This document shows positions 2,731-60,298 of a stretch of 64,000 nt of DNA, piece by piece. Every line of letters begins with the position of its first letter. Position 1 is the stretch's first letter. Source of the DNA: Escherichia phage mogra. The DNA lies in sequence record MN850579.1; one strand, given 5' to 3'. The notes under the pieces were generated by a model. That model searched no databases. It was not told the DNA's origin and saw only the letters and a program-made list of their open reading frames with translations. Both the position numbers and the translations under genes were made by a program.

Positions 2731-3042
2731 ATGAAAACTTATCAAGAGTTTATCGCTGAAGCTACTAAAGCCGATAAAAATTTTATTATTAACACCACCG
2801 GTCCGTTAGATGATGAATACGCTAATGCTATTATTAAGTCAATTTCTAATCAAGGCGTTGAAGTAACAAATTTCGAATATAAGAAAAATGATACTTATAT
2901 GATAATTAGTATCAAAAAAGGTTCAAAAGCCAAAATTAAATCTGCGTTTGGTGTTATGCGAGTTGACCAAATCGATAACCACGATTTTTCACAAACAGGG
3001 GTCAAACGCCAAAATACCATTTCTTCTAAAGGCATAAAATAA
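2731..3042 (+). CDS. internal protein with capsid-targeting sequence (IPI locus)
   Basis: N-terminus MKTYQEFIAEA matches the T4 internal-protein capsid targeting sequence; position after 57B. Confidence 0.7.
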   Translation: MKTYQEFIAEATKADKNFIINTTGPLDDEYANAIIKSISNQGVEVTNFEYKKNDTYMIISIKKGSKAKIKSAFGVMRVDQIDNHDFSQTGVKRQNTISSKGIK

Positions 3043-3085
3043 TTTACAACAAGATAGGACTATGTTATAGTAGTCCTATCAAAAC
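3042..3085 (+). promoter_or_regulatory. early promoter / stem-loop cassette (TAGGACTA..TAGTCCTA family)
   Basis: ATTTAC -35; inverted repeat flanking TGTTATAG. Confidence 0.5.
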
Positions 3086-3103
3086 AACCAAACGGAACCT
3101 AAA

Positions 3104-3367
3104 ATGAAAACTTTCAACGAATTCATCTCAGAATCATCTGGTGTGAAAATTAACAAAGCGGTCAATCAGGTTATTGCTGATATTCTTAATTTGTATAACA
3201 TTGACTTAACTCCGCATATCACGCTTGGTAACAAACGAAACTTTTTCATATTTGACACATCTGAACTTGATGAAAATCGGTTCAATAACATTCAACGTTT
3301 TGCGAATGATAAAGGTCTTCGACACGAGCCTGGTGGCTATAAAAAATACGCAATATATTTGAAATAA
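3104..3367 (+). CDS. internal-protein-like, variant CTS (MKTFNEFISE)
   Basis: CTS-like N-terminus; own promoter cassette upstream. Confidence 0.55.
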   Translation: MKTFNEFISESSGVKINKAVNQVIADILNLYNIDLTPHITLGNKRNFFIFDTSELDENRFNNIQRFANDKGLRHEPGGYKKYAIYLK

Positions 3368-3416
3368 AGGTATACAAGCCTATAGGGATATGTTATAGTA
3401 GTCCTATCAAAACAAA

Positions 3417-3623
3417 ATGAGTAAATGGAGAAATAAAATGAAACGCGCTGAACTGATTCGTAATGTTGCTGTAGTAATTGCTTCAATGGCTTTTAGTTTT
3501 TCGATGTTTGTAGGATTCATTTGTGGACTACTGACAACAACAGAAAATTCTATCTCATTGGTAGTAGCATTTCTAATCGGCTTAATCGCTATCGTTATGG
3601 ATAAAATTGCAAAAGGTGAGTAA
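3417..3623 (+). CDS. small membrane protein
   Basis: 68 aa, two hydrophobic segments. Confidence 0.5.
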   Translation: MSKWRNKMKRAELIRNVAVVIASMAFSFSMFVGFICGLLTTTENSISLVVAFLIGLIAIVMDKIAKGE

Positions 3624-4274: not shown

Positions 4275-4370
4275 AACGTAATTTGCTTTAAGAATTATGT
4301 GTTATTATTAATCTACCCTCTATTACCAAAGGTGCTCCCTCAAGTGCCTTTCATAATAGAAAGTTATTTA

Positions 4371-4445
4371 GGCCCTGTAGCTCAATGGGAGAGCTGTCAG
4401 CTCATAACTGATAGGTAGCTGGATCGAAACCAGCCAGGGCCACCA
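4371..4445 (+). tRNA. tRNA, anticodon CAU (Met or lysidine-modified Ile), with encoded CCA
   Basis: Cloverleaf by hand: acceptor GGCCCTG/CAGGGCC, D-stem GCTC/GAGC, anticodon loop CTCATAA, T-stem GCTGG/CCAGC, 3-prime ACCA. Confidence 0.8.
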
Positions 4446-4545: not shown

Positions 4546-4622
<77 letters not shown>

Positions 4623-5811: not shown

Positions 5812-5838
5812 GCCCCTTCCTTACGGTTGGGGCTTTTT
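5812..5838 (+). terminator. rho-independent terminator
   Basis: GCCCCTTCCTTACGGTTGGGGC then T5. Confidence 0.65.
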
Positions 5839-5871: not shown

Positions 5872-5900
5872 GTTTACTTCTTCCCTAGATGTGTTACTAT
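5872..5900 (+). promoter_or_regulatory. T4-type early promoter
   Basis: GTTTAC 5872; TACTAT 5895. Confidence 0.5.
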
Positions 5901-5928
5901 AGACCTATCAAAACATGGGGAGAATATT

Positions 5929-6432
5929 ATGAGTCTTTACACTGAACTGAATAAAAAATCTGAAGAATCTGCTGAAACTATTTTTAAAAACGTGCAAAAG
6001 CGTATTTTAGAAAAGATGTATAACGCTGCAGCTAAAGGTGAAAAATCTTGCCGGTTTCCGATTAGGTGTTCTTCAGATTTATGCGCAAATACTATTGAAT
6101 GGCTGGAAAGTGAAGGTCTTACGGTAGAGAAAAACCCGGCGACTTCTATTGATAGCGAATCATATATTAGTATTTCTTGGGATAAATCAAGGGTAGAAGA
6201 GAAAGATGGTGATTGGGTTGTAGATGTTAAAACTTCTGATGGTGGACGTTCTGTTGAAGTTTCAGCTGTAGTTAAAGGTACCCACGAACAAAGGACTTGG
6301 GGTTGGGGTGGTGAAGAAAAAGAAATTGTTCTTAGTGTGATTGCCAGGTCAACTAGTAATAAAATTGCACAAAGCATCATTGACGCTGCAATTGCTGAAG
6401 CAGAAAAAATTTGCAAAATTAAAAATAAATGA
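5929..6432 (+). CDS. hypothetical protein
   Basis: 167 aa; promoter cassette upstream. Confidence 0.55.
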   Translation: MSLYTELNKKSEESAETIFKNVQKRILEKMYNAAAKGEKSCRFPIRCSSDLCANTIEWLESEGLTVEKNPATSIDSESYISISWDKSRVEEKDGDWVVDVKTSDGGRSVEVSAVVKGTHEQRTWGWGGEEKEIVLSVIARSTSNKIAQSIIDAAIAEAEKICKIKNK

Positions 6433-6702: not shown

Positions 6703-6930
6703 ATGGCTAAAGTTAGTATTGATGTCGTTGATTATGAATACACTGAAGAAGTTATTCGCAACCGTCACCCTGAAGTTCGTATCGATTCAGTCCAAGATTC
6801 CAAGTTCTGGACAACTGAGCTTAATCTGAGTGGTCCTTATGAAGCCGTTAAGAAGTTCATGGTTGAAGAATACTGTGAAGGCATGCACCCGGAAGACGCC
6901 AAGTTTTATGTCAATTTGATTAAAAAATAA
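6703..6930 (+). CDS. hypothetical protein
   Basis: 75 aa; SD gaggaaaa. Confidence 0.5.
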   Translation: MAKVSIDVVDYEYTEEVIRNRHPEVRIDSVQDSKFWTTELNLSGPYEAVKKFMVEEYCEGMHPEDAKFYVNLIKK

Positions 6931-6940
6931 TTTACAAACT

Positions 6941-6975
6941 CTTGAGAGCAGAGTATAATGCTCTCATTGGATAAT
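6941..6975 (+). promoter_or_regulatory. early promoter cassette, copy A of an identical 49 bp repeat
   Basis: TTTACA 6941, 17 nt spacer, TATAAT 6964; inverted repeat GAGAGCA/TGCTCTC; identical to 36843-36891. Confidence 0.6.
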
Positions 6976-7000
6976 AAACCACCAATTGAAAGGTAATAAT

Positions 7001-9743: not shown

Positions 9744-9788
9744 GTTTACAACAAGATAGGGCTATGTTATAGTAGTCCTATCAAAAAC
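9744..9788 (+). promoter_or_regulatory. early promoter / stem-loop cassette (TAGGGCTA..TAGTCCTA)
   Basis: GTTTAC 9744. Confidence 0.5.
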
Positions 9789-9802
9789 AAATGGAGTCCA
9801 CA

Positions 9803-10042
9803 ATGATTTATTACGAAAGTATCGGAACCAAAGTGGTTGGTAAAACCATTACTCGTGAAAAGTTTGCAAAGATATTCGATATGCGTTATAAAAAATCTGA
9901 ACACAAAGGCATCCGATTCGAAGATGCGCACTGTACAATTTGCCCTTATAATGAAGACATAAACGGTACAATCGTTCCATTGGTAGAGGCTTCACACGAT
10001 GACCTCTGGGACGAATATAATATCGCATGTCGTGAAATTTAA
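9803..10042 (+). CDS. hypothetical protein
   Basis: ATG 9803 after SD tggag; promoter cassette upstream. Confidence 0.5.
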   Translation: MIYYESIGTKVVGKTITREKFAKIFDMRYKKSEHKGIRFEDAHCTICPYNEDINGTIVPLVEASHDDLWDEYNIACREI

Positions 10043-11039: not shown

Positions 11040-11084
11040 GTTTACACAATTATAGGACTATGTTATAGTAGTCCTACCAAAACA
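11040..11084 (+). promoter_or_regulatory. early promoter / stem-loop cassette (TAGGACTA..TAGTCCTA)
   Basis: GTTTAC 11040. Confidence 0.5.
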
Positions 11085-11097
11085 TGAGGAGAATATT

Positions 11098-11403
11098 ATG
11101 AAATTAGGCGAAACCAACCGAATTGGTCTTTTAACAATATTTGCATCACTTTTTTACGCAACTCTTTCTGTTGCAGTATTACAAAAGGCTTACAGTATGG
11201 ATGGTGTGCCTGGTTGTATATTCTTATCACCGTTTTTATTATTCGTCGGAGCTTTGTTATTATATGCCACGACTAGTTTCGACCATAATGTCTGGGTCAA
11301 TTATAAACGTAAATTGACCGAAGAAGAACACGCAGAAGCTCGTAAAAAAGCTATTGAATCTACCAATCTAGAAAATTTCATTAAAGAATGTCGAGGAAAA
11401 TAA
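11098..11403 (+). CDS. small membrane protein, C-terminal NFIKECRGK
   Basis: Two TM helices; shared C-terminal motif. Confidence 0.55.
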   Translation: MKLGETNRIGLLTIFASLFYATLSVAVLQKAYSMDGVPGCIFLSPFLLFVGALLLYATTSFDHNVWVNYKRKLTEEEHAEARKKAIESTNLENFIKECRGK

Positions 11404-13786: not shown

Positions 13787-14064
13787 AAACATACAATGAA
13801 TTTTTATCAGAATCTATTCTTAACGAAGCTACTGACACATTTGCAACTAAGCTAGGTGCAGCTTTGGTTGAAGCCGAAAGTCTATTAGCACGTATTTCTG
13901 AACTTGCTAGTAAGATAGATACTCGCAAATTTGAACGTACCAGCGATATCGTTAAGCTCGAAGCCTTGTTGCGTATGTGCGATAAACCGGAAGAAATCGC
14001 TAAGAACGGCTCGCTGATGAAACAACGTCTTGAAAAATATATTTCAGGCGCTTCAGAAAAATAG
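13783..14064 (+). CDS. internal-protein-like, variant CTS ([10 protein letters not shown])
   Basis: CTS-like N-terminus; ATGA overlap with e. Confidence 0.5.
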
Positions 14065-14065
14065 T

Positions 14066-14119
14066 GTTTACTTCCTCCAAGGACTTTGATACTATACATC
14101 TATCAACTACTTGGAGGAA
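14066..14119 (+). promoter_or_regulatory. early promoter inside a 10 bp perfect inverted repeat whose 3-prime arm is the denV SD
   Basis: GTTTAC 14066; arms TTCCTCCAAG 14072-14081 and CTTGGAGGAA 14110-14119. Confidence 0.55.
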
Positions 14120-14122
14120 ATT

Positions 14123-14536
14123 ATGACTCGTATCAATTTGACACTTGTTTCTGAACTGACCGACCAACATCTTATGGCTGAGTATCGTGAATTACCACGC
14201 GTATTTGGTGCAGTCCGTAAACATGTTCAAAACGGTAAACGTGTAAAGGATTTTAAAATCTCTCCAACATTTATCTTAGGCACAGGTCACGTAACATTCT
14301 TTTACGACAAACTCGAATTTTTACGTTTACGACAAATCGAGCTAATCGCTGAATGCTTGAAACGTGGTTTCAAAATCAAGGACACGACAGTCCAGGATAT
14401 TTCCGACATCCCTGCCGAATTTCGTAATAATTATGTCCCGTCTGAAGCGTCCATTGCGATAAGTCAAGCACGCTTAGATGAAAAAATTGCTCAACGTCCG
14501 ACTTGGTACAAATACTATGGTAAATCAATTTACTAA
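14123..14536 (+). CDS. denV: endonuclease V (pyrimidine dimer DNA glycosylase) DenV
   Basis: [32 protein letters not shown]; near-identical to T4 endo V. Confidence 0.93.
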
Positions 14537-15789: not shown

Positions 15790-15902
15790 CAGTTTACTTT
15801 CTCCTAGAATTGTGATAGTATATTCATAATTACTTGGAGGGGTAAATACAGAAATGGACAATTCATGCGCCACGGAATGGCCCAACCTAAAAGAGAAACT
15901 AA

Positions 15903-16442
15903 ATGAGAACATTTTTAACTGGTCCTTATCTATCCCTGATGAATGCTTTTACACACCATTCTGATGCTAGAGTAGAAGAAATTTGTAAGAATGGTTATGT
16001 CCCACCATTTGAAGACGTACTCAAGCAGTACTGTACACTTCGTTTAGACGGTGGCAGACAATCAGGTAAATCGTCCGCAGTAACTAATTTTGCTGTTAAT
16101 TGGCTATACGATGGTGGAACAGTTATTGTTCTTTCTAATACTTCAGCTTATGCTAAAATTTCTGCTGGCAACATTAAAAAAGAATTTTCTCGTTATTCTA
16201 GCGATGATATTCGATTCCGTTTATTTACTGATTCTGTTCGTAGTTTTATTGGCAATGAAGGTTCTAAATTCCGTGGATTAACGCTTTCTCGTATTCTGTA
16301 TATAATTGACGAGCCTATTAAAGCTCCTGATATGGATAAGATTTACAATGTCCACATTAAAACAGTACAGCACTGCTGCAAAAGCAAATATTGCATCGGC
16401 GGTAATGCTCGTCCTCAATTTTTTGTGATTGGAATGCAATGA
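15903..16442 (+). CDS. P-loop NTPase, function unknown
   Basis: Walker A GGRQSGKSS; Walker B-like LYIIDEP. Confidence 0.55.
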   Translation: MRTFLTGPYLSLMNAFTHHSDARVEEICKNGYVPPFEDVLKQYCTLRLDGGRQSGKSSAVTNFAVNWLYDGGTVIVLSNTSAYAKISAGNIKKEFSRYSSDDIRFRLFTDSVRSFIGNEGSKFRGLTLSRILYIIDEPIKAPDMDKIYNVHIKTVQHCCKSKYCIGGNARPQFFVIGMQ

Positions 16443-17596: not shown

Positions 17597-17895
17597 TGGC
17601 TCAAATCCTATCAGGCTTTGGAACTCATTATGAAGCATCTAGACGCATAACTGAAAGCAATCCTTTTGGCCTTGTTCCGAAGCACAAGAAAATTCAAAGC
17701 CTTGATGACTTTGAGAACCGCCTATGGGCCCTCTTTAATGAGTACAAGGCATATCTGAAAGAAGACGCTGACTATTGTCTTGAAGAAGATGAGATTGCGT
17801 ATTACGAACAACGCCTTGAACAGCTCAAGAACTTCCGTCAGGTTCGTGACGAAGTATCTAAAGCAGTTAAAAAGTTAATTCCTTTCAAAGAGTAG
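17596..17895 (+). CDS. hypothetical protein
   Basis: ATG overlapping upstream stop; 99 aa. Confidence 0.5.
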
Positions 17896-17945
17896 TTTAC
17901 TTCTCCTCTAGTTGTGTTACTATAGACTTGTCAACTAGAGGAGAA
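17895..17945 (+). promoter_or_regulatory. early promoter inside a 14 bp perfect inverted repeat whose 3-prime arm carries the SD
   Basis: GTTTAC 17895; arms TTCTCCTCTAGTTG 17901-17914 and CAACTAGAGGAGAA 17932-17945; TACTAT in loop. Confidence 0.6.
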
Positions 17946-17951
17946 ATCAAA

Positions 17952-18410
17952 ATGACTATCAATTCGGAAGTTTTTATCCGCCGTAATAAACTCCGTCGAA
18001 TCTTTGAAACGGAGTTCCGCAAAATAAATGCCGGTATAAAAGATGCTGCAAAGTCTCTTGGACTACCAGGCTTTCATATCAAGTATTCTCAACATCTCTT
18101 AGATCGTGCCATCCAGAGAGAAATAGATGAGAATTACGTTTTTGAATTATTTCATAAAGTAAAAAATCATGTTAAAGAAGTTGCAGAATTTTTATCAATG
18201 CCGGCACGTCCGGATGTTGATGAAGATTTTGTCGAAGGTGTCGAATATCGCCCAGGCCGTTTAGAAATAACTGATGGAAATCTTTGGTTAGGACTTACAG
18301 TTTGTCGCGAAAATCCAGCATTCAAAATGAAGACTCTTCAATGCAGAATGGCTATTATTAACAGTAAACGACTACCAGGAAAAGCTTCTAAAGCAGTGAT
18401 TAAAATCTAG
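17952..18410 (+). CDS. possible RegB endoribonuclease
   Basis: 152 aa, T4 RegB-like size and position between the vs-region and SLT-like gene; no motif confirmation. Confidence 0.4.
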   Translation: MTINSEVFIRRNKLRRIFETEFRKINAGIKDAAKSLGLPGFHIKYSQHLLDRAIQREIDENYVFELFHKVKNHVKEVAEFLSMPARPDVDEDFVEGVEYRPGRLEITDGNLWLGLTVCRENPAFKMKTLQCRMAIINSKRLPGKASKAVIKI

Positions 18411-21509: not shown

Positions 21510-21536
21510 GCCCCTTCCGAAAGGTCGGGGCTTTTT
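21510..21536 (+). terminator. rho-independent terminator after rI-like gene
   Basis: GCCCCTTCCGAAAGGTCGGGGC then T5. Confidence 0.7.
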
Positions 21537-21547
21537 GGCATCTATCA

Positions 21548-21599
21548 GTTTACTTCTCCTCAGGTTGTGTTATAGTAAACCTTACTTACTAGAGGAGAA
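21548..21599 (+). promoter_or_regulatory. early promoter with SD-containing inverted repeat (TTCTCCTC/GAGGAGAA)
   Basis: GTTTAC 21548. Confidence 0.5.
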
Positions 21600-21790: not shown

Positions 21791-22000
21791 ATGCTTTACG
21801 ATTATACTGGAAAATCTGAAGACGGTGTACTTGAACTTTTACCTGAAAGCGCTGAAGATGACGATATGGCGACGGTGATGTTTTGTAAAAATGGTCCCGG
21901 GGATAAGGGATGGATTTATCTTCGCCAAGAAAATGACCTAATTGTTTTAGACCCTAAACAAGTTGAAGAACTTTATCAACATTTAAAACACAATCGGTAG
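21791..22000 (+). CDS. hypothetical protein
   Basis: ATG after SD gtgagga. Confidence 0.45.
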   Translation: MLYDYTGKSEDGVLELLPESAEDDDMATVMFCKNGPGDKGWIYLRQENDLIVLDPKQVEELYQHLKHNR

Positions 22001-22043
22001 TTTACATCTTGGTAGGACTATGTTATAGTAGTCCTATCAAAAC
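22000..22043 (+). promoter_or_regulatory. early promoter / stem-loop cassette (TAGGACTA..TAGTCCTA)
   Basis: GTTTAC 22000. Confidence 0.5.
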
Positions 22044-22164
22044 GAACGGAGAACAAAATGAAACTTTTGCTTATCGCTTATGTTGTAGTACAATACAATT
22101 ATCCGATGTTTACTTATAACATGGTAAACGGCATAGTGAATCTTATTGAAACGAGTATGGTAAA

Positions 22165-26184: not shown

Positions 26185-26236
26185 GTTTACAAGGTCTATG
26201 GTTATGTTATTATAGACCTATCAACTACTGGAGGTA
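26185..26236 (+). promoter_or_regulatory. early promoter with inverted repeat GGTCTAT/ATAGACC
   Basis: GTTTAC 26185. Confidence 0.5.
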
Positions 26237-26240
26237 AAAC

Positions 26241-26768
26241 ATGAACGCTAAAGATATTTTCAACCTGGTAAATTATAACGACGGTAAATTTAAATCTGAA
26301 GCACAAAGTAAGTTCTTTAATGACATTGCTTATGGTAACGAGATTACCGTGGACGGAGGTCAGATTTTCAAATCTCGCTGGAATTGGATTGTTATCATCG
26401 ATTCAGTTGGAATTGTGGAAGTCTACAAAAACACTAACAAAAAACGTACATTATTCTGGTCTCGTGAAACTAACGAGAAGTACAAAAAGGATAAAGCATC
26501 TCGTTTATCCAAAGTAACCCAGGAAGATATCGAGTTTATCAAGAAAGATATCGAGATGTACGAAAATTTAATCGCTGAAGACCAGGCAGTACTCGATAAG
26601 TTTGATGAAATTAAAGCTTCTCTTGAAATCCCTGACTTCATGAAAGAAACAGTAAACGAACGATACGCTCTCACTTCAGAACGTATTGCAAACTATACAA
26701 AACAGAAAGCAGAACGTATTAGTACTCTTCGGAAATTTGAAGAACGTTTAAAGACGGTTCACGCATAA
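26241..26768 (+). CDS. hypothetical protein
   Basis: SD ggaggt; 175 aa. Confidence 0.5.
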   Translation: MNAKDIFNLVNYNDGKFKSEAQSKFFNDIAYGNEITVDGGQIFKSRWNWIVIIDSVGIVEVYKNTNKKRTLFWSRETNEKYKKDKASRLSKVTQEDIEFIKKDIEMYENLIAEDQAVLDKFDEIKASLEIPDFMKETVNERYALTSERIANYTKQKAERISTLRKFEERLKTVHA

Positions 26769-36840: not shown

Positions 36841-36843
36841 CGA

Positions 36844-36878
36844 TTTACAAACTCTTGAGAGCAGAGTATAATGCTCTC
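36844..36878 (+). promoter_or_regulatory. early promoter cassette, copy B of the identical 49 bp repeat
   Basis: TTTACA 36844, TATAAT 36867; identical to 6940-6988. Confidence 0.6.
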
Positions 36879-36909
36879 ATTGGATAATAAAATAACCGAG
36901 GAAAATAAT

Positions 36910-58196: not shown

Positions 58197-58258
58197 GGGG
58201 TTTACATCTTCCTCTAGGCATGATATGATGTACTTACACAAACCAAGAGGAAAACATT

Positions 58259-58633
58259 ATGAATATGTCTCAAGCAATTTTTACTGCAATCACCGAAAAC
58301 ACAACTGTTGAAGTAGTTTCTCCGCTGGCAACTTACGTTATTCTTGCTCCTAAAACTATTGTATCTCGTATGGAAAACATGGGCAAACGTATCGTACAAA
58401 TTGTTGGAGCCGGAAATCAAAAACTTGATTATCTACGAACCATCAAAGCTTATGAACATTTCCAACTCGAAAAAGGTTCTCCTATCCAGGTAGAACTCGT
58501 AAATGGTGATATCGTTCGAGCAATGTTCCATCATTTCTATGCATTGAATGACCCATCTAAAGCGGTTCGTTTAATTGCATATGACGCAAACCAAAACGAA
58601 ATCAACGCGGATATATCTAAATTACGTTTTTAA
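58259..58633 (+). CDS. hypothetical protein
   Basis: 124 aa; insert between genes 41 and 61. Confidence 0.5.
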   Translation: MNMSQAIFTAITENTTVEVVSPLATYVILAPKTIVSRMENMGKRIVQIVGAGNQKLDYLRTIKAYEHFQLEKGSPIQVELVNGDIVRAMFHHFYALNDPSKAVRLIAYDANQNEINADISKLRF

Positions 58634-58684
58634 GTTTACTTCTCCAGTAGTTGTGTTATTATAGACCTATCAACTACTGGAGAA
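58634..58684 (+). promoter_or_regulatory. early promoter inside a 14 bp perfect inverted repeat whose 3-prime arm carries the SD
   Basis: GTTTAC 58634; arms TTCTCCAGTAGTTG 58640-58653 and CAACTACTGGAGAA 58671-58684. Confidence 0.6.
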
Positions 58685-58688
58685 CAAA

Positions 58689-59006
58689 ATGAAAACCATC
58701 GATTGTAAAGCAGAATTTAAGATTTTTTATCACGGTTCAAGTAGTTCAGCTAACATCGAAAACATGCTTTGTCCTCCTGAAGAAACAGGAGTTCTGTCTG
58801 AAACTGGACGTAAGAAAAACTTGGATCGTGTATTCTTTACTGAAGATATCGGTTTAGCAAAGATTTATGCAGGACGAGCAGCACGCTCTTATGGAGGTGA
58901 ACCACGTCTCTATCGAGTAATTTCTCCGGTAGATGTAGTTCAAATGAATGATACTAAAGGCGCTACAGTTTATCACGCTGAATGGGCATTTTGCGAGGAA
59001 ATATGA
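58689..59006 (+). CDS. hypothetical protein (YHGSSS motif)
   Basis: 105 aa. Confidence 0.5.
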   Translation: MKTIDCKAEFKIFYHGSSSSANIENMLCPPEETGVLSETGRKKNLDRVFFTEDIGLAKIYAGRAARSYGGEPRLYRVISPVDVVQMNDTKGATVYHAEWAFCEEI

Positions 59007-59944: not shown

Positions 59945-59988
59945 TGTTTACATTATAGATGGACTATAGTATAGTAGTCCTATCAAAT
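59945..59988 (+). promoter_or_regulatory. early promoter / stem-loop cassette (GGACTA..TAGTCC family)
   Basis: GTTTAC 59945. Confidence 0.5.
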
Positions 59989-60004
59989 CAACTAAGGAGT
60001 TAAA

Positions 60005-60298
60005 ATGAAAAAGTTATCATTGGCAGCAATCTTACTTGCAGTATCATGTGCACCGGCTCCAGTTACGGCAGGTTATGATAAAGACCTCTGTGAGTGGTCA
60101 ATGACTGCAAATCAAGAAGATGTTGAACAACAAATCTTCTCTGATATCATGAACATCACTAAACGAGACCGTCCTAATATGGTTAATAAAGTTGTTGAAC
60201 AACTTAAGTCTGGCGGTATCATGCAGTACAACTATGTTTTGTATTGTGACCCTAATTTCGATAACAAAGATATCGTAACCGAAATCACAGGTGAATAA
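60005..60298 (+). CDS. secreted protein / probable lipoprotein
   Basis: Signal peptide with lipobox-like AVSC. Confidence 0.55.
   Translation: MKKLSLAAILLAVSCAPAPVTAGYDKDLCEWSMTANQEDVEQQIFSDIMNITKRDRPNMVNKVVEQLKSGGIMQYNYVLYCDPNFDNKDIVTEITGE

Follow-up and report, generated by a model that had tools for sequence, protein, structure and literature searches.

The window analysed here, a 64,000-nucleotide stretch of Escherichia phage mogra (MN850579.1), contains early promoters in which the spacer between the −35 and −10 elements is complementary to the Shine-Dalgarno (SD) sequence of the next gene. This complementarity is genuine, non-random and evolutionarily maintained. It is most extensive upstream of regB (site 1), orf105 (site 2) and denV (site 3). 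On balance, we favour the explanation that the spacers encode anti-SD sequences and that the downstream genes are translated essentially only from RNA initiated at their own promoters. The mechanism was put forward in an initial annotation of the sequence and appears to be the best-supported reading.

Early promoter spacers complementary to Shine-Dalgarno sequences

All sites contain the −35 element GTTTAC, which is the consensus of T4 early promoters (PMC1524935), followed after 17–18 nt by an extended −10 element of the form TGnTAnnnT, and the stop codon of the upstream open reading frame (ORF) is located −1 to +1 nt from the −35 element (Table 1). The 14-nt 5′ arm of the inverted repeat at site 1 takes up all of the 17-nt spacer that the −35 and extended −10 elements leave free. 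The GGAG within the 3′ arm lies 8 nt before the start codon of regB. Site 2 has the same geometry, and its arms differ from those of site 1 by a compensated change of TC/GA to AG/CT. The coordinates of four sites in the initial annotation were verified against the sequence, and sites 1–3 have the anatomy described there, namely a promoter embedded within the repeat, with its −10 element in the loop and the SD sequence as the 3′ arm. Promoter geometry, combined with the numbering of transcription start sites (TSS) of T4-like early promoters (PMC1524935), places the predicted first nucleotide of the transcript 2 nt ahead of the 3′ arm at sites 1 and 2, and 8 nt ahead of it at site 3. Therefore, RNA initiated at these promoters is predicted to lack the 5′ arm.

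Perfect inverted repeats with arms of at least 12 bp and loops of 3–45 nt are present only at sites 1 and 2 in the whole 64 kb, and the two 14-bp repeats observed compare with 0.01 expected from 100 Markov simulations. A general inverted-repeat search ranked sites 1 and 2 (repeats I6 and I7) and the denV site (I4) among the top repeats. Since 10-bp repeats are not rare in the window (7 observed, 3.6 expected), the case for site 3 is based on its position and conservation. A census, in which T4-type early promoters were scanned for and then paired with an SD sequence and an ORF, identified 30 sites, all on the + strand. Stems of at least 7 bp between spacer and SD sequence are formed by 6 of the 30 promoter-gene pairs, compared with 3% expected. 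When the whole leader is considered, stems of at least 7 bp occur at 14 of the 30 promoters (7% in shuffles), and stems of at least 10 bp at four (0.2% in shuffles). The 3′ arm covers the SD sequence at six promoters, three of which are strong (17895, 58634 and 14066) and three weak (21548, 5872 and 58200). A generic sigma-70 scan (TTGACA/TATAAT) was rejected, as it gave no enrichment over shuffles and failed to detect sites 1 and 3, the −35 element of T4 early promoters being GTTTAC.

The predicted folding is specific to RNA that reads through the sites from upstream. Read-through RNAs of sites 1, 2 and 3 form the expected hairpins with energies of −26.6, −25.0 and −22.0 kcal/mol and z scores of −3.77, −5.05 and −3.70, and no shuffled sequence folded as well. 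The SD sequences lie within the predicted stems, which have 14, 14 and 10 bp. RNAs beginning at the predicted first nucleotide are unstructured, with z scores of about +1. The mean probability that the SD sequence is unpaired increases from 0.21 in read-through RNA to 0.70 in own-start RNA at site 1, from 0.02 to 0.62 at site 2, and from 0.10 to 0.59 at site 3. The folding calculations thus agree with the initial annotation, according to which read-through transcripts bury the SD sequence in a hairpin, whereas transcripts from the embedded promoter retain only the 3′ arm and leave it free. The same design had been said to recur at 58634–58684, 14066–14119 and 21548–21599. The first two elements are sites 2 and 3, but the third (site 4) is weak, with eight pairs, and located behind a real terminator. 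The predicted folds of site 4 and of the two other weak members are indistinguishable from those of shuffled sequences (z scores in Table 1).

The GGAG in the arm had also been recognised as a RegB cleavage motif, and at site 1 it is the SD sequence of regB itself, a documented self-cleavage site of RegB in T4 and its relatives (PMC3014915). The target of RegB and S1 is the 11-nt single-stranded sequence GGAGRAYARAA, and RNA structure inhibits its cleavage (PMC1702504). The sequence at orf105 matches this consensus at 11 of 11 positions (GGAGAACAAAA, from 58679), while regB and denV each match at 8 of 11; regB has a C, which is disfavoured, at consensus position 9. Among the weak members, site 4 matches at 8 and the promoter at 5872 at 9 of the 11 positions. 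The RegB/S1 target is predicted to be single-stranded only in own-start RNA.

Conservation provides the strongest evidence. Regions upstream of regB were compared in 45 viral contigs and T4; promoter features are absent from the GenBank and RefSeq records of T4 in this region. The stem between promoter spacer and SD sequence is present in T4 (15 bp, including two G-U pairs) and in at least seven further lineages, and at least seven different distal sequences are found, T4 included. The loop-proximal parts of the arms are specific to each lineage, yet complementary: CTAGTTG/CAACTAG, CTTGACTG/CAGTTAAG, CTTTATG/CATAAAG, CTGTAAG/CTTACAG, CTTTTAGT/ACTAAAAG and CTGTAG/CTACAG. In lineage L044, even the core has switched from CTCC/GGAG to CCTC/GAGG with the stem kept. 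The spacers pair best with the leader of their own lineage (own-versus-cross permutation, p ~5e-5). When the sequences were aligned without gaps, with the CTCC/GGAG cores as the only anchor, both sides had changed in 11 of 15 pairs. The covariation score was 0.393, compared with 0.154 in shuffles (none of 500 reached the observed value) and 0.07–0.13 in slid registers. This alignment replaced one calculated with MAFFT, which was structurally inconsistent in that the SD sequence slid between lineages. The denV orthologues retain the pairing with four arm variants, including TCTCCTGTAG/CTACAGGAGA of T4 denV. The 3′ arm always covers the SD sequence in the regB and denV orthologues and ends 3–8 nt before the ATG. 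Because regB and denV lineages keep complementarity with different arm sequences, the pairing is under selection, with RNA rather than DNA presumably being the selected structure. The long stem of orf105 is specific to Mosigvirus, and other lineages keep only a 5–6-bp core; an additional gene, orf124, is found upstream of orf105 only in some lineages. In the orf105 loci L072 and L076, a GC-rich terminator hairpin upstream of position 401 replaces the −35 element and the 5′ arm, and the 3′ arm TATCAACTACTGGAGAA is kept. Therefore, the 3′ arm is constrained in its own right, by the +1 region of the promoter and by the SD sequence, and it is apparently the spacer that evolves to fit the arm.

Two other arrangements were observed at denV. 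In loci L125, L133, L134, L135, L137, L138, L140 and L146, the spacer arm is absent and a hairpin occluding the SD sequence is located wholly downstream of the −10 element, some 30 nt 5′ of the ATG, which is at locus position 401 (GTCCTCC...GGAGGAC in L135, GTCTTCC...GGAGGAC in L125). Such a hairpin would mask the SD sequence in every transcript; the ribosome-binding site (RBS) of denV therefore seems to be generally kept structured. In L136, L139 and L144, which are from jumbo phage contigs of 346–378 kb, the −35 element TTGACT lies inside a terminator-like hairpin, the T-run of which is the promoter spacer (for example, AGGGTTGACTTCGGTCAGCCCTTTTTGCTATAAT), forming a compact fusion of terminator and promoter.

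Read-through transcription and the proposed control of translation

The long stems are located where read-through is expected. The strong sites 1–3 have the upstream stop codon directly against the −35 element and are not preceded by a terminator. The weak sites at 21548 and 5872 follow canonical terminators, and that at 58200 follows the terminator of gene 41. Among the orthologous loci, stems of at least 9 bp are present at 35 of 77 terminator-free junctions, compared with 1 of 16 junctions preceded by a terminator; the Fisher p value of 0.002 for this association is naive, as the data are phylogenetically non-independent. In T4, the middle promoters Pvs.7 (64382) and PipIII (66724) were mapped upstream of regB and denV (PMC2988021). 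Since middle promoters lie upstream, transcription through regB and denV should continue once the early promoters have been switched off. At the position corresponding to Pvs.7, the window contains a candidate middle-mode promoter of the MotA type (Table 1), which is a likely source of post-early read-through into regB.

The MotA-box pattern (TGCTTNA, 10–13 nt, TANNNT) has 18 matches in the window against 4.7 expected, and none of 100 shuffles reached this number. Examples on the + strand are at 4284, 19579, 32304, 34549, 39120, 41813, 49324, 50629 and 54503. The enrichment is consistent with a T4-like middle mode of transcription in this phage.

The following mechanism of control can be proposed. 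In read-through RNA, made early and later in the middle mode, the 5′ arm derived from the promoter spacer would pair with the SD sequence and GGAG of the next gene. The resulting hairpin of 10–15 bp, with the −10 sequence in its loop, would occlude the RBS and block the binding of the 30S subunit, and it would also hide the single-stranded target needed by RegB and S1. RNA initiated at the gene's own promoter would begin 2–8 nt before the 3′ arm, and would have a short open leader and no 5′ arm. Essentially only the immediate-early transcripts from these genes' own promoters, those of regB above all but also of denV and orf105, would be translated and open to attack by RegB. RegB would thus be made strictly as an immediate-early product. 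The early promoter of regB shuts off at 2–3 min, and the output of RegB ‘must be tightly regulated’ (PMC3014915). We speculate that early-promoter cassettes with an anti-SD spacer form a conserved class in T-even phages and make both translatability and RegB sensitivity depend on the promoter from which the RNA originates. If so, the synthesis of RegB might be confined to the 2–3 min of promoter life, and later read-through of the Pvs.7 type might be silent and uncut. This ‘early-only’ arrangement could then be seen as a mirror image of the ‘late-only’ switch of gene e.

Several observations weigh against the proposed mechanism. Strong SD stems are found at only three of the approximately 30 early promoters in the window. 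Most of the promoter hairpins flank the −10 element, off the SD sequence, and masking of the SD sequence is therefore not a general function of the promoter hairpins. The stem is absent from several lineages of regB and denV, and in the case of regB it is missing from the most divergent lineages, including Aeromonas phage 44RR. A rank test of stem length against the presence of a terminator was not significant (Mann-Whitney p = 0.12). The internal non-Watson-Crick positions comprise three G-U and three A-C, and therefore wobble pairs do not identify the sense RNA as the folding species. Cassettes within one genome tend to share arms; because copies are homogenised within genomes, some of the ‘compensatory’ changes are replacements of whole cassettes. 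The regB, denV and orf105 cassettes of L037, L067 and L116 (contig IMGVR_UViG_641509422) share the arm variant TCTCCTGTAG, and the denV cassette of T4 (L002, 7357–7416, − strand) is almost the same as the cassette of regB in the IMGVR_UViG_641509422 lineage. The shared variants suggest intragenomic homogenisation or transfer of cassettes, in line with the recombination idea advanced for promoter-early stem-loop (PeSL) cassettes. Furthermore, a ribosome at the abutting stop codon would cover the first 4–5 nt of the 5′ arm and could transiently free part of the GGAG, and the block may thus be leaky.

It is unlikely that the elements function as has been proposed for PeSL cassettes, in which case the stem-loop would attenuate or terminate upstream transcription, the cassette would serve as a substrate for recombination, and the pairing with the SD sequence would be incidental. 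A stem-loop of RB49 lowered the expression of downstream lacZ like a strong terminator, and the cassettes were linked to insertions and deletions (PMC2839356, PMC4122927). The SD-arm cassettes of the window are likewise repeated, being 0.68–0.85 identical to one another from −35 to ATG, copies in one genome share arm variants, and the hairpins flanking −10 elements in the window match the published PeSL geometry. However, the stems of sites 1–3 are not followed by U-tracts (the sequences ATCAAAATG, CAAAATG and ATTATG follow instead), and a terminator scan called none of them, on which grounds their identity as intrinsic terminators was rejected. The true terminators of the window are GC-rich stems with TTTTT, and they lie upstream of the weak members rather than the strong ones. 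The covariation reaches the SD core (CTCC/GGAG to CCTC/GAGG), whereas a terminator would not need to cover the SD sequence. Moreover, the downstream genes vs.1, vs and the tk cluster lack early-type promoters of their own until 21548, and efficient termination would starve these genes. Translational coupling, in which the lower part of the stem would be opened by a ribosome that terminates on the upstream ORF, so that downstream expression depends on upstream translation, also has a low probability. The upstream stop codon is located 5–7 nt before the 5′ arm at all three strong sites. The footprint of a ribosome reaches to approximately +15 nt from the P site, and from this geometry a terminating ribosome would cover 4–5 nt of the arm and free most of the GGAG. 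Nevertheless, 9–10 bp would remain, including the first G of the GGAG, and the anti-SD segment is positioned past the stop codon, not within the ORF as in classical coupling structures. The tight spacing of stop codon and −35 element is general in this compact genome and is also found at promoters without SD stems.

Control of RNA decay is decidedly unlikely to be the primary function of the hairpin, which would then shield the GGAG of polycistronic RNA from RegB and S1, so that only monocistronic RNAs from the gene's own promoter are cut and long transcripts survive. The requirement of RegB for an unstructured 11-nt site (PMC1702504), the full match of orf105 to the consensus, and the fact that the SD sequence of regB is a proven RegB site in relatives of T4 all speak for such shielding. 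On the other hand, the GGAG of T4 denV is already resistant to RegB for sequence reasons (PMC1702504), yet the hairpin is present; the regB and denV sites of the window match the consensus only in part; and L044 has GAGG instead of GGAG, yet keeps the stem. Shielding from RegB is compatible with translational control, and the two may be co-functions of one hairpin. Very improbable is the absence of any function in RNA, with the complementarity either kept neutrally by quasi-palindrome-templated mutation or gene conversion, which would copy the SD and +1 region into the spacer, or acting in the DNA by cruciform formation or on promoter melting. T4 is the classical system for quasi-palindrome-templated mutations. 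The 3′ arm is independently constrained, as it persists in L072 and L076 without the −35 element and 5′ arm, the spacer is otherwise free to vary, and the wobble pairs are neutral as evidence for RNA. Nonetheless, orthologous sites in lineages that have diverged at the genus level retain stems of 10–15 bp with many distinct arm sequences, and their association with terminator-free junctions is unexpected under neutrality. Loops of 17–28 nt are unfavourable for cruciform extrusion. The variation of arm sequences between lineages also speaks against a protein operator, a reading that was rejected for this reason.

Relation to known phage systems

The logic of the proposed anti-SD control would equal that of a long-known device of T4 late genes, here built on early promoters. 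Sequestration of the RBS combined with an internal promoter has been described for e, soc, 49, I-TevI, I-TevII, I-TevIII and segB of T4 and for mobE of Aeh1 (PMC3014915, PMC2988022), and it cuts the synthesis of T4 lysozyme approximately 100-fold (PMC3014915). In these genes, the SD sequence, the AUG, or both are held in a helix on upstream transcripts, while RNA from the internal promoter lacks the 5′ strand and is translatable (PMC3014915, PMC2988022). Sites 1–3 share with them, by prediction, the paired SD sequence in upstream RNA and a first transcribed nucleotide inside the DNA that encodes the structure. The genes using the device ‘are all late genes’ (PMC2988022), and their promoters are gp55-dependent late promoters (TATAAATA), whereas those described here are sigma-70 early promoters (GTTTAC and −10), and regB is an immediate-early gene. 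Unlike in the late genes, the 5′ strand is the promoter's own spacer between the −35 and −10 elements. The late-gene device delays expression, whereas here the outcome would be its restriction to the first minutes. Masking of a downstream SD sequence by an upstream segment of the same RNA is also the basis of hairpin-mediated translational coupling, for example in the RNA phage MS2. In coupling of the MS2 type, the masking segment is part of the upstream ORF and elongating ribosomes open it, whereas at sites 1–3 it lies past the stop codon and is the promoter spacer.

PeSL cassettes were described in RB49/phi1, PST/T4 and nt-1/KVP40 (PMC2839356, PMC4122927). Their stem-loops are positioned in the upstream AT-rich region, over the −35 element, between the two boxes, over the −10 element, or just before the TSS; that of PST/T4 immediately precedes the promoter. 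Proposed functions are termination or attenuation of transcription and recombination (PMC2839356, PMC4122927). The initial annotation had matched the elements of the window to these cassettes. The likeness holds for the promoter, the order of SD sequence and ATG, and the membership of a repeated family; it does not extend to the SD sequence, which is never a stem arm in the PeSL papers, or to the terminator role, which fits poorly. Both types are intergenic composites of upstream stop codon, early promoter, stem-loop, SD sequence and an ATG at the 3′ end, and both are repeated around early and hyperplastic regions in mutually similar copies. However, the stem-loops of PeSL cassettes are compact and have a separate SD sequence on their 3′ side, whereas the stems of sites 1–3 span the −10 element and the TSS, have the SD sequence as their 3′ arm and lack a U-tract. 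Sites 1–3 correspond to none of the described stem-loop positions, while the hairpins flanking −10 elements in the window fit the subclass overlapping the −10. The SD-arm elements are thus PeSL-like cassettes in the broad sense, with a stem geometry and an implied function that are undescribed in the PeSL papers.

Site 1 coincides with the known autoregulation of RegB, which cleaves the SD sequence (GGAG) of its own mRNA in T4 and relatives. The accessible reviews of this autoregulation make no mention of a hairpin between spacer and SD sequence. Such a hairpin would add a second layer of control, by which read-through regB RNA would be both untranslatable and resistant to RegB. Pairing of an early-promoter spacer with an SD sequence was not found described in the accessible literature, and an earlier description of the regB hairpin in older papers is possible.

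If the proposed mechanism is correct, promoter spacers of T4-type phages carry information at the RNA level, and the same DNA serves as a promoter element for one transcript and as an anti-SD sequence for another. It would explain how RegB remains immediate-early despite transcripts from upstream crossing regB, and would separate two populations of mRNA, one translated and sensitive to RegB, the other silent and resistant. It would also give a selective reason why the sequences of some PeSL-like cassettes are conserved. As the structure is present at regB and denV of T4 itself, the mechanism is directly testable in the best-developed phage genetic system. In the annotation and engineering of T4-like therapeutic phages, a gene moved without its cassette could change its timing of expression.

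Weak members, other promoter hairpins and genome context

Table 1. Coordinates of promoter, stem and gene features in the window; starts of transcription are predicted from promoter geometry and gene names are from annotation transfer.
Feature	Position	Strand	Remarks
Upstream stop codon TAG, site 1	17893..17895	+	ORF is vs.3 orthologue; shares first base of −35; no terminator before promoter
Site 1 (regB) −35, GTTTAC	17895..17900	+	T4-type early consensus
Site 1 5′ arm (putative anti-SD), TTCTCCTCTAGTTG	17901..17914	+	Perfect 14-bp repeat; covariation
Site 1 loop	17915..17931		17 nt
Site 1 extended −10, TGT + TACTAT	17915..17923	+	TACTAT at 17918–17923; within hairpin loop
Site 1 predicted TSS	17930	+	7 nt past −10, 2 nt 5′ of 3′ arm
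Site 1 3′ arm, CAACTAGAGGAGAA	17932..17945	+	SD and RegB motif GGAG at 17940–17943
regB	17952..18410	+	RegB endoribonuclease, 152 aa; Pfam REGB_T4, E=4e-69; 78% identity to T4 RegB
Site 2 (orf105) −35, GTTTAC	58634..58639	+	Adjoins upstream stop TAA (58631–58633)
Site 2 5′ arm, TTCTCCAGTAGTTG	58640..58653	+	Perfect 14-bp repeat
Site 2 −10, TATTAT	58657..58662	+	In 17-nt loop; predicted TSS 58669
Site 2 3′ arm, CAACTACTGGAGAA	58671..58684	+	
orf105	58689..59006	+	Conserved T4-like phage protein, 105 aa, phrog_2110; directly 5′ of dmd
Site 3 (denV) −35, GTTTAC	14066..14071	+	Upstream stop TAG (14062–14064) 1 nt before
Site 3 5′ arm, TTCCTCCAAG	14072..14081	+	Perfect 10-bp repeat, 28-nt loop
Site 3 −10, TACTAT	14090..14095	+	18-nt spacer; predicted TSS 14102
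Site 3 3′ arm, CTTGGAGGAA	14110..14119	+	Contains denV SD
denV	14123..14536	+	Endonuclease V, pyrimidine-dimer glycosylase; Pfam Pyr_excise
Candidate middle-mode (MotA-type) promoter, CGCTTTC, 12 nt, TATAAT	16278..16306	+	At position of T4 Pvs.7; MotA box imperfect
Intrinsic terminator, GCCCC...GGGGC + TTTTT	21510..21536	+	Directly upstream of site 4 promoter
Site 4 −35	21548..21553	+	Promoter of DUF7438 ORF, ATG 21604
Site 4 arms, TTCTCCTC / GAGGAGAA	21554..21561, 21592..21599	+	8 perfect pairs, 30-nt loop; z −0.69
Site 4 −10, TATAGT	21571..21576	+	
Weak member, arms TTCTTCCC (5878–5885), GGGGAGAA (5917–5924)	5872..5931	+	One G-U; z −1.28; terminator upstream at 5812–5833
Weak member, arms TTCCTCT (58209–58215), AGAGGAA (58246–58252)	58200..58261	+	z +0.68; behind gene 41 terminator
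Hairpins flanking −10	3042–3104, 3370–3438, 9744–9803, 11040–11098, 22000–22058, 59946–60005, 2665–2731, 26185–26241		

The spacer of site 1 can pair over 12 bp with the leader of site 4, which is a weak, decayed copy of the site 1 cassette. At about ten promoters of the census, the arms merely flank the −10 element and do not touch the SD sequence. In these hairpins, the 5′ arm is in the spacer, the 3′ arm is directly past the −10 element, and stems of 9–13 bp closed by a 6-nt loop, into which part of the −10 falls, are predicted with z scores of −2.1 to −4.5 (for example, GATAGGACTAT/GTAGTCCTATC). The arms GATAGGACT...AGTCCTATC occur at 3042, 9744, 11040 and 22000, and GAGAGC...GCTCTC at 6930 and 36843. 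The SD-arm and −10-flanking classes are two sequence sub-families, and because the predicted start of transcription is within or after the 3′ arm in both, hairpins of both classes would exist only in RNA from upstream. The cassettes at 6930–6977 and 36843–36890, 30 kb apart, are identical over approximately 48 nt (ATTTACAAACTCTTGAGAGCAGAGTATAATGCTCTCATTGGATAATAA), and this long direct repeat could mediate recombination.

Strong inverted repeats flanking the −10 element are also present in T4 (L002), at the early promoters of ipII (start 7719, − strand; CCTAGAATTGTGA...TCACAATTCTAGG) and ipIII (start 8416, − strand; GAATTGTGA...TCACAATT). The window promoter at 15792–15854 carries the arms AATTGTGA/TCATAATT, which are related to the ipII and ipIII repeats.

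The window is from an RB69-like T4-type phage of the genus Mosigvirus, and a 4-kb piece around site 1 has 98% identity to coliphages of this genus, ATK47 and vB_EcoM_G53 among them. Gene names were transferred from the annotations of two relatives. The + strand holds T4 prereplicative genes in their direction of transcription, beginning with e, denV, vs.8 to vs.3, regB, vs, tk, nrdC, 49, nrdD/G and 55. These are followed by 47, 46, 45, 44, 62, regA, 43, uvsX, 40 and 41, and finally by two small ORFs, dmd, imm, sp and 61. A search of the window against Rfam at the gathering score returned only two tRNAs, and the cassette hairpins matched no family. The tRNA genes at 4371–4442 and 4546–4619 correspond to tRNA-Met and tRNA-Arg annotated in a relative.

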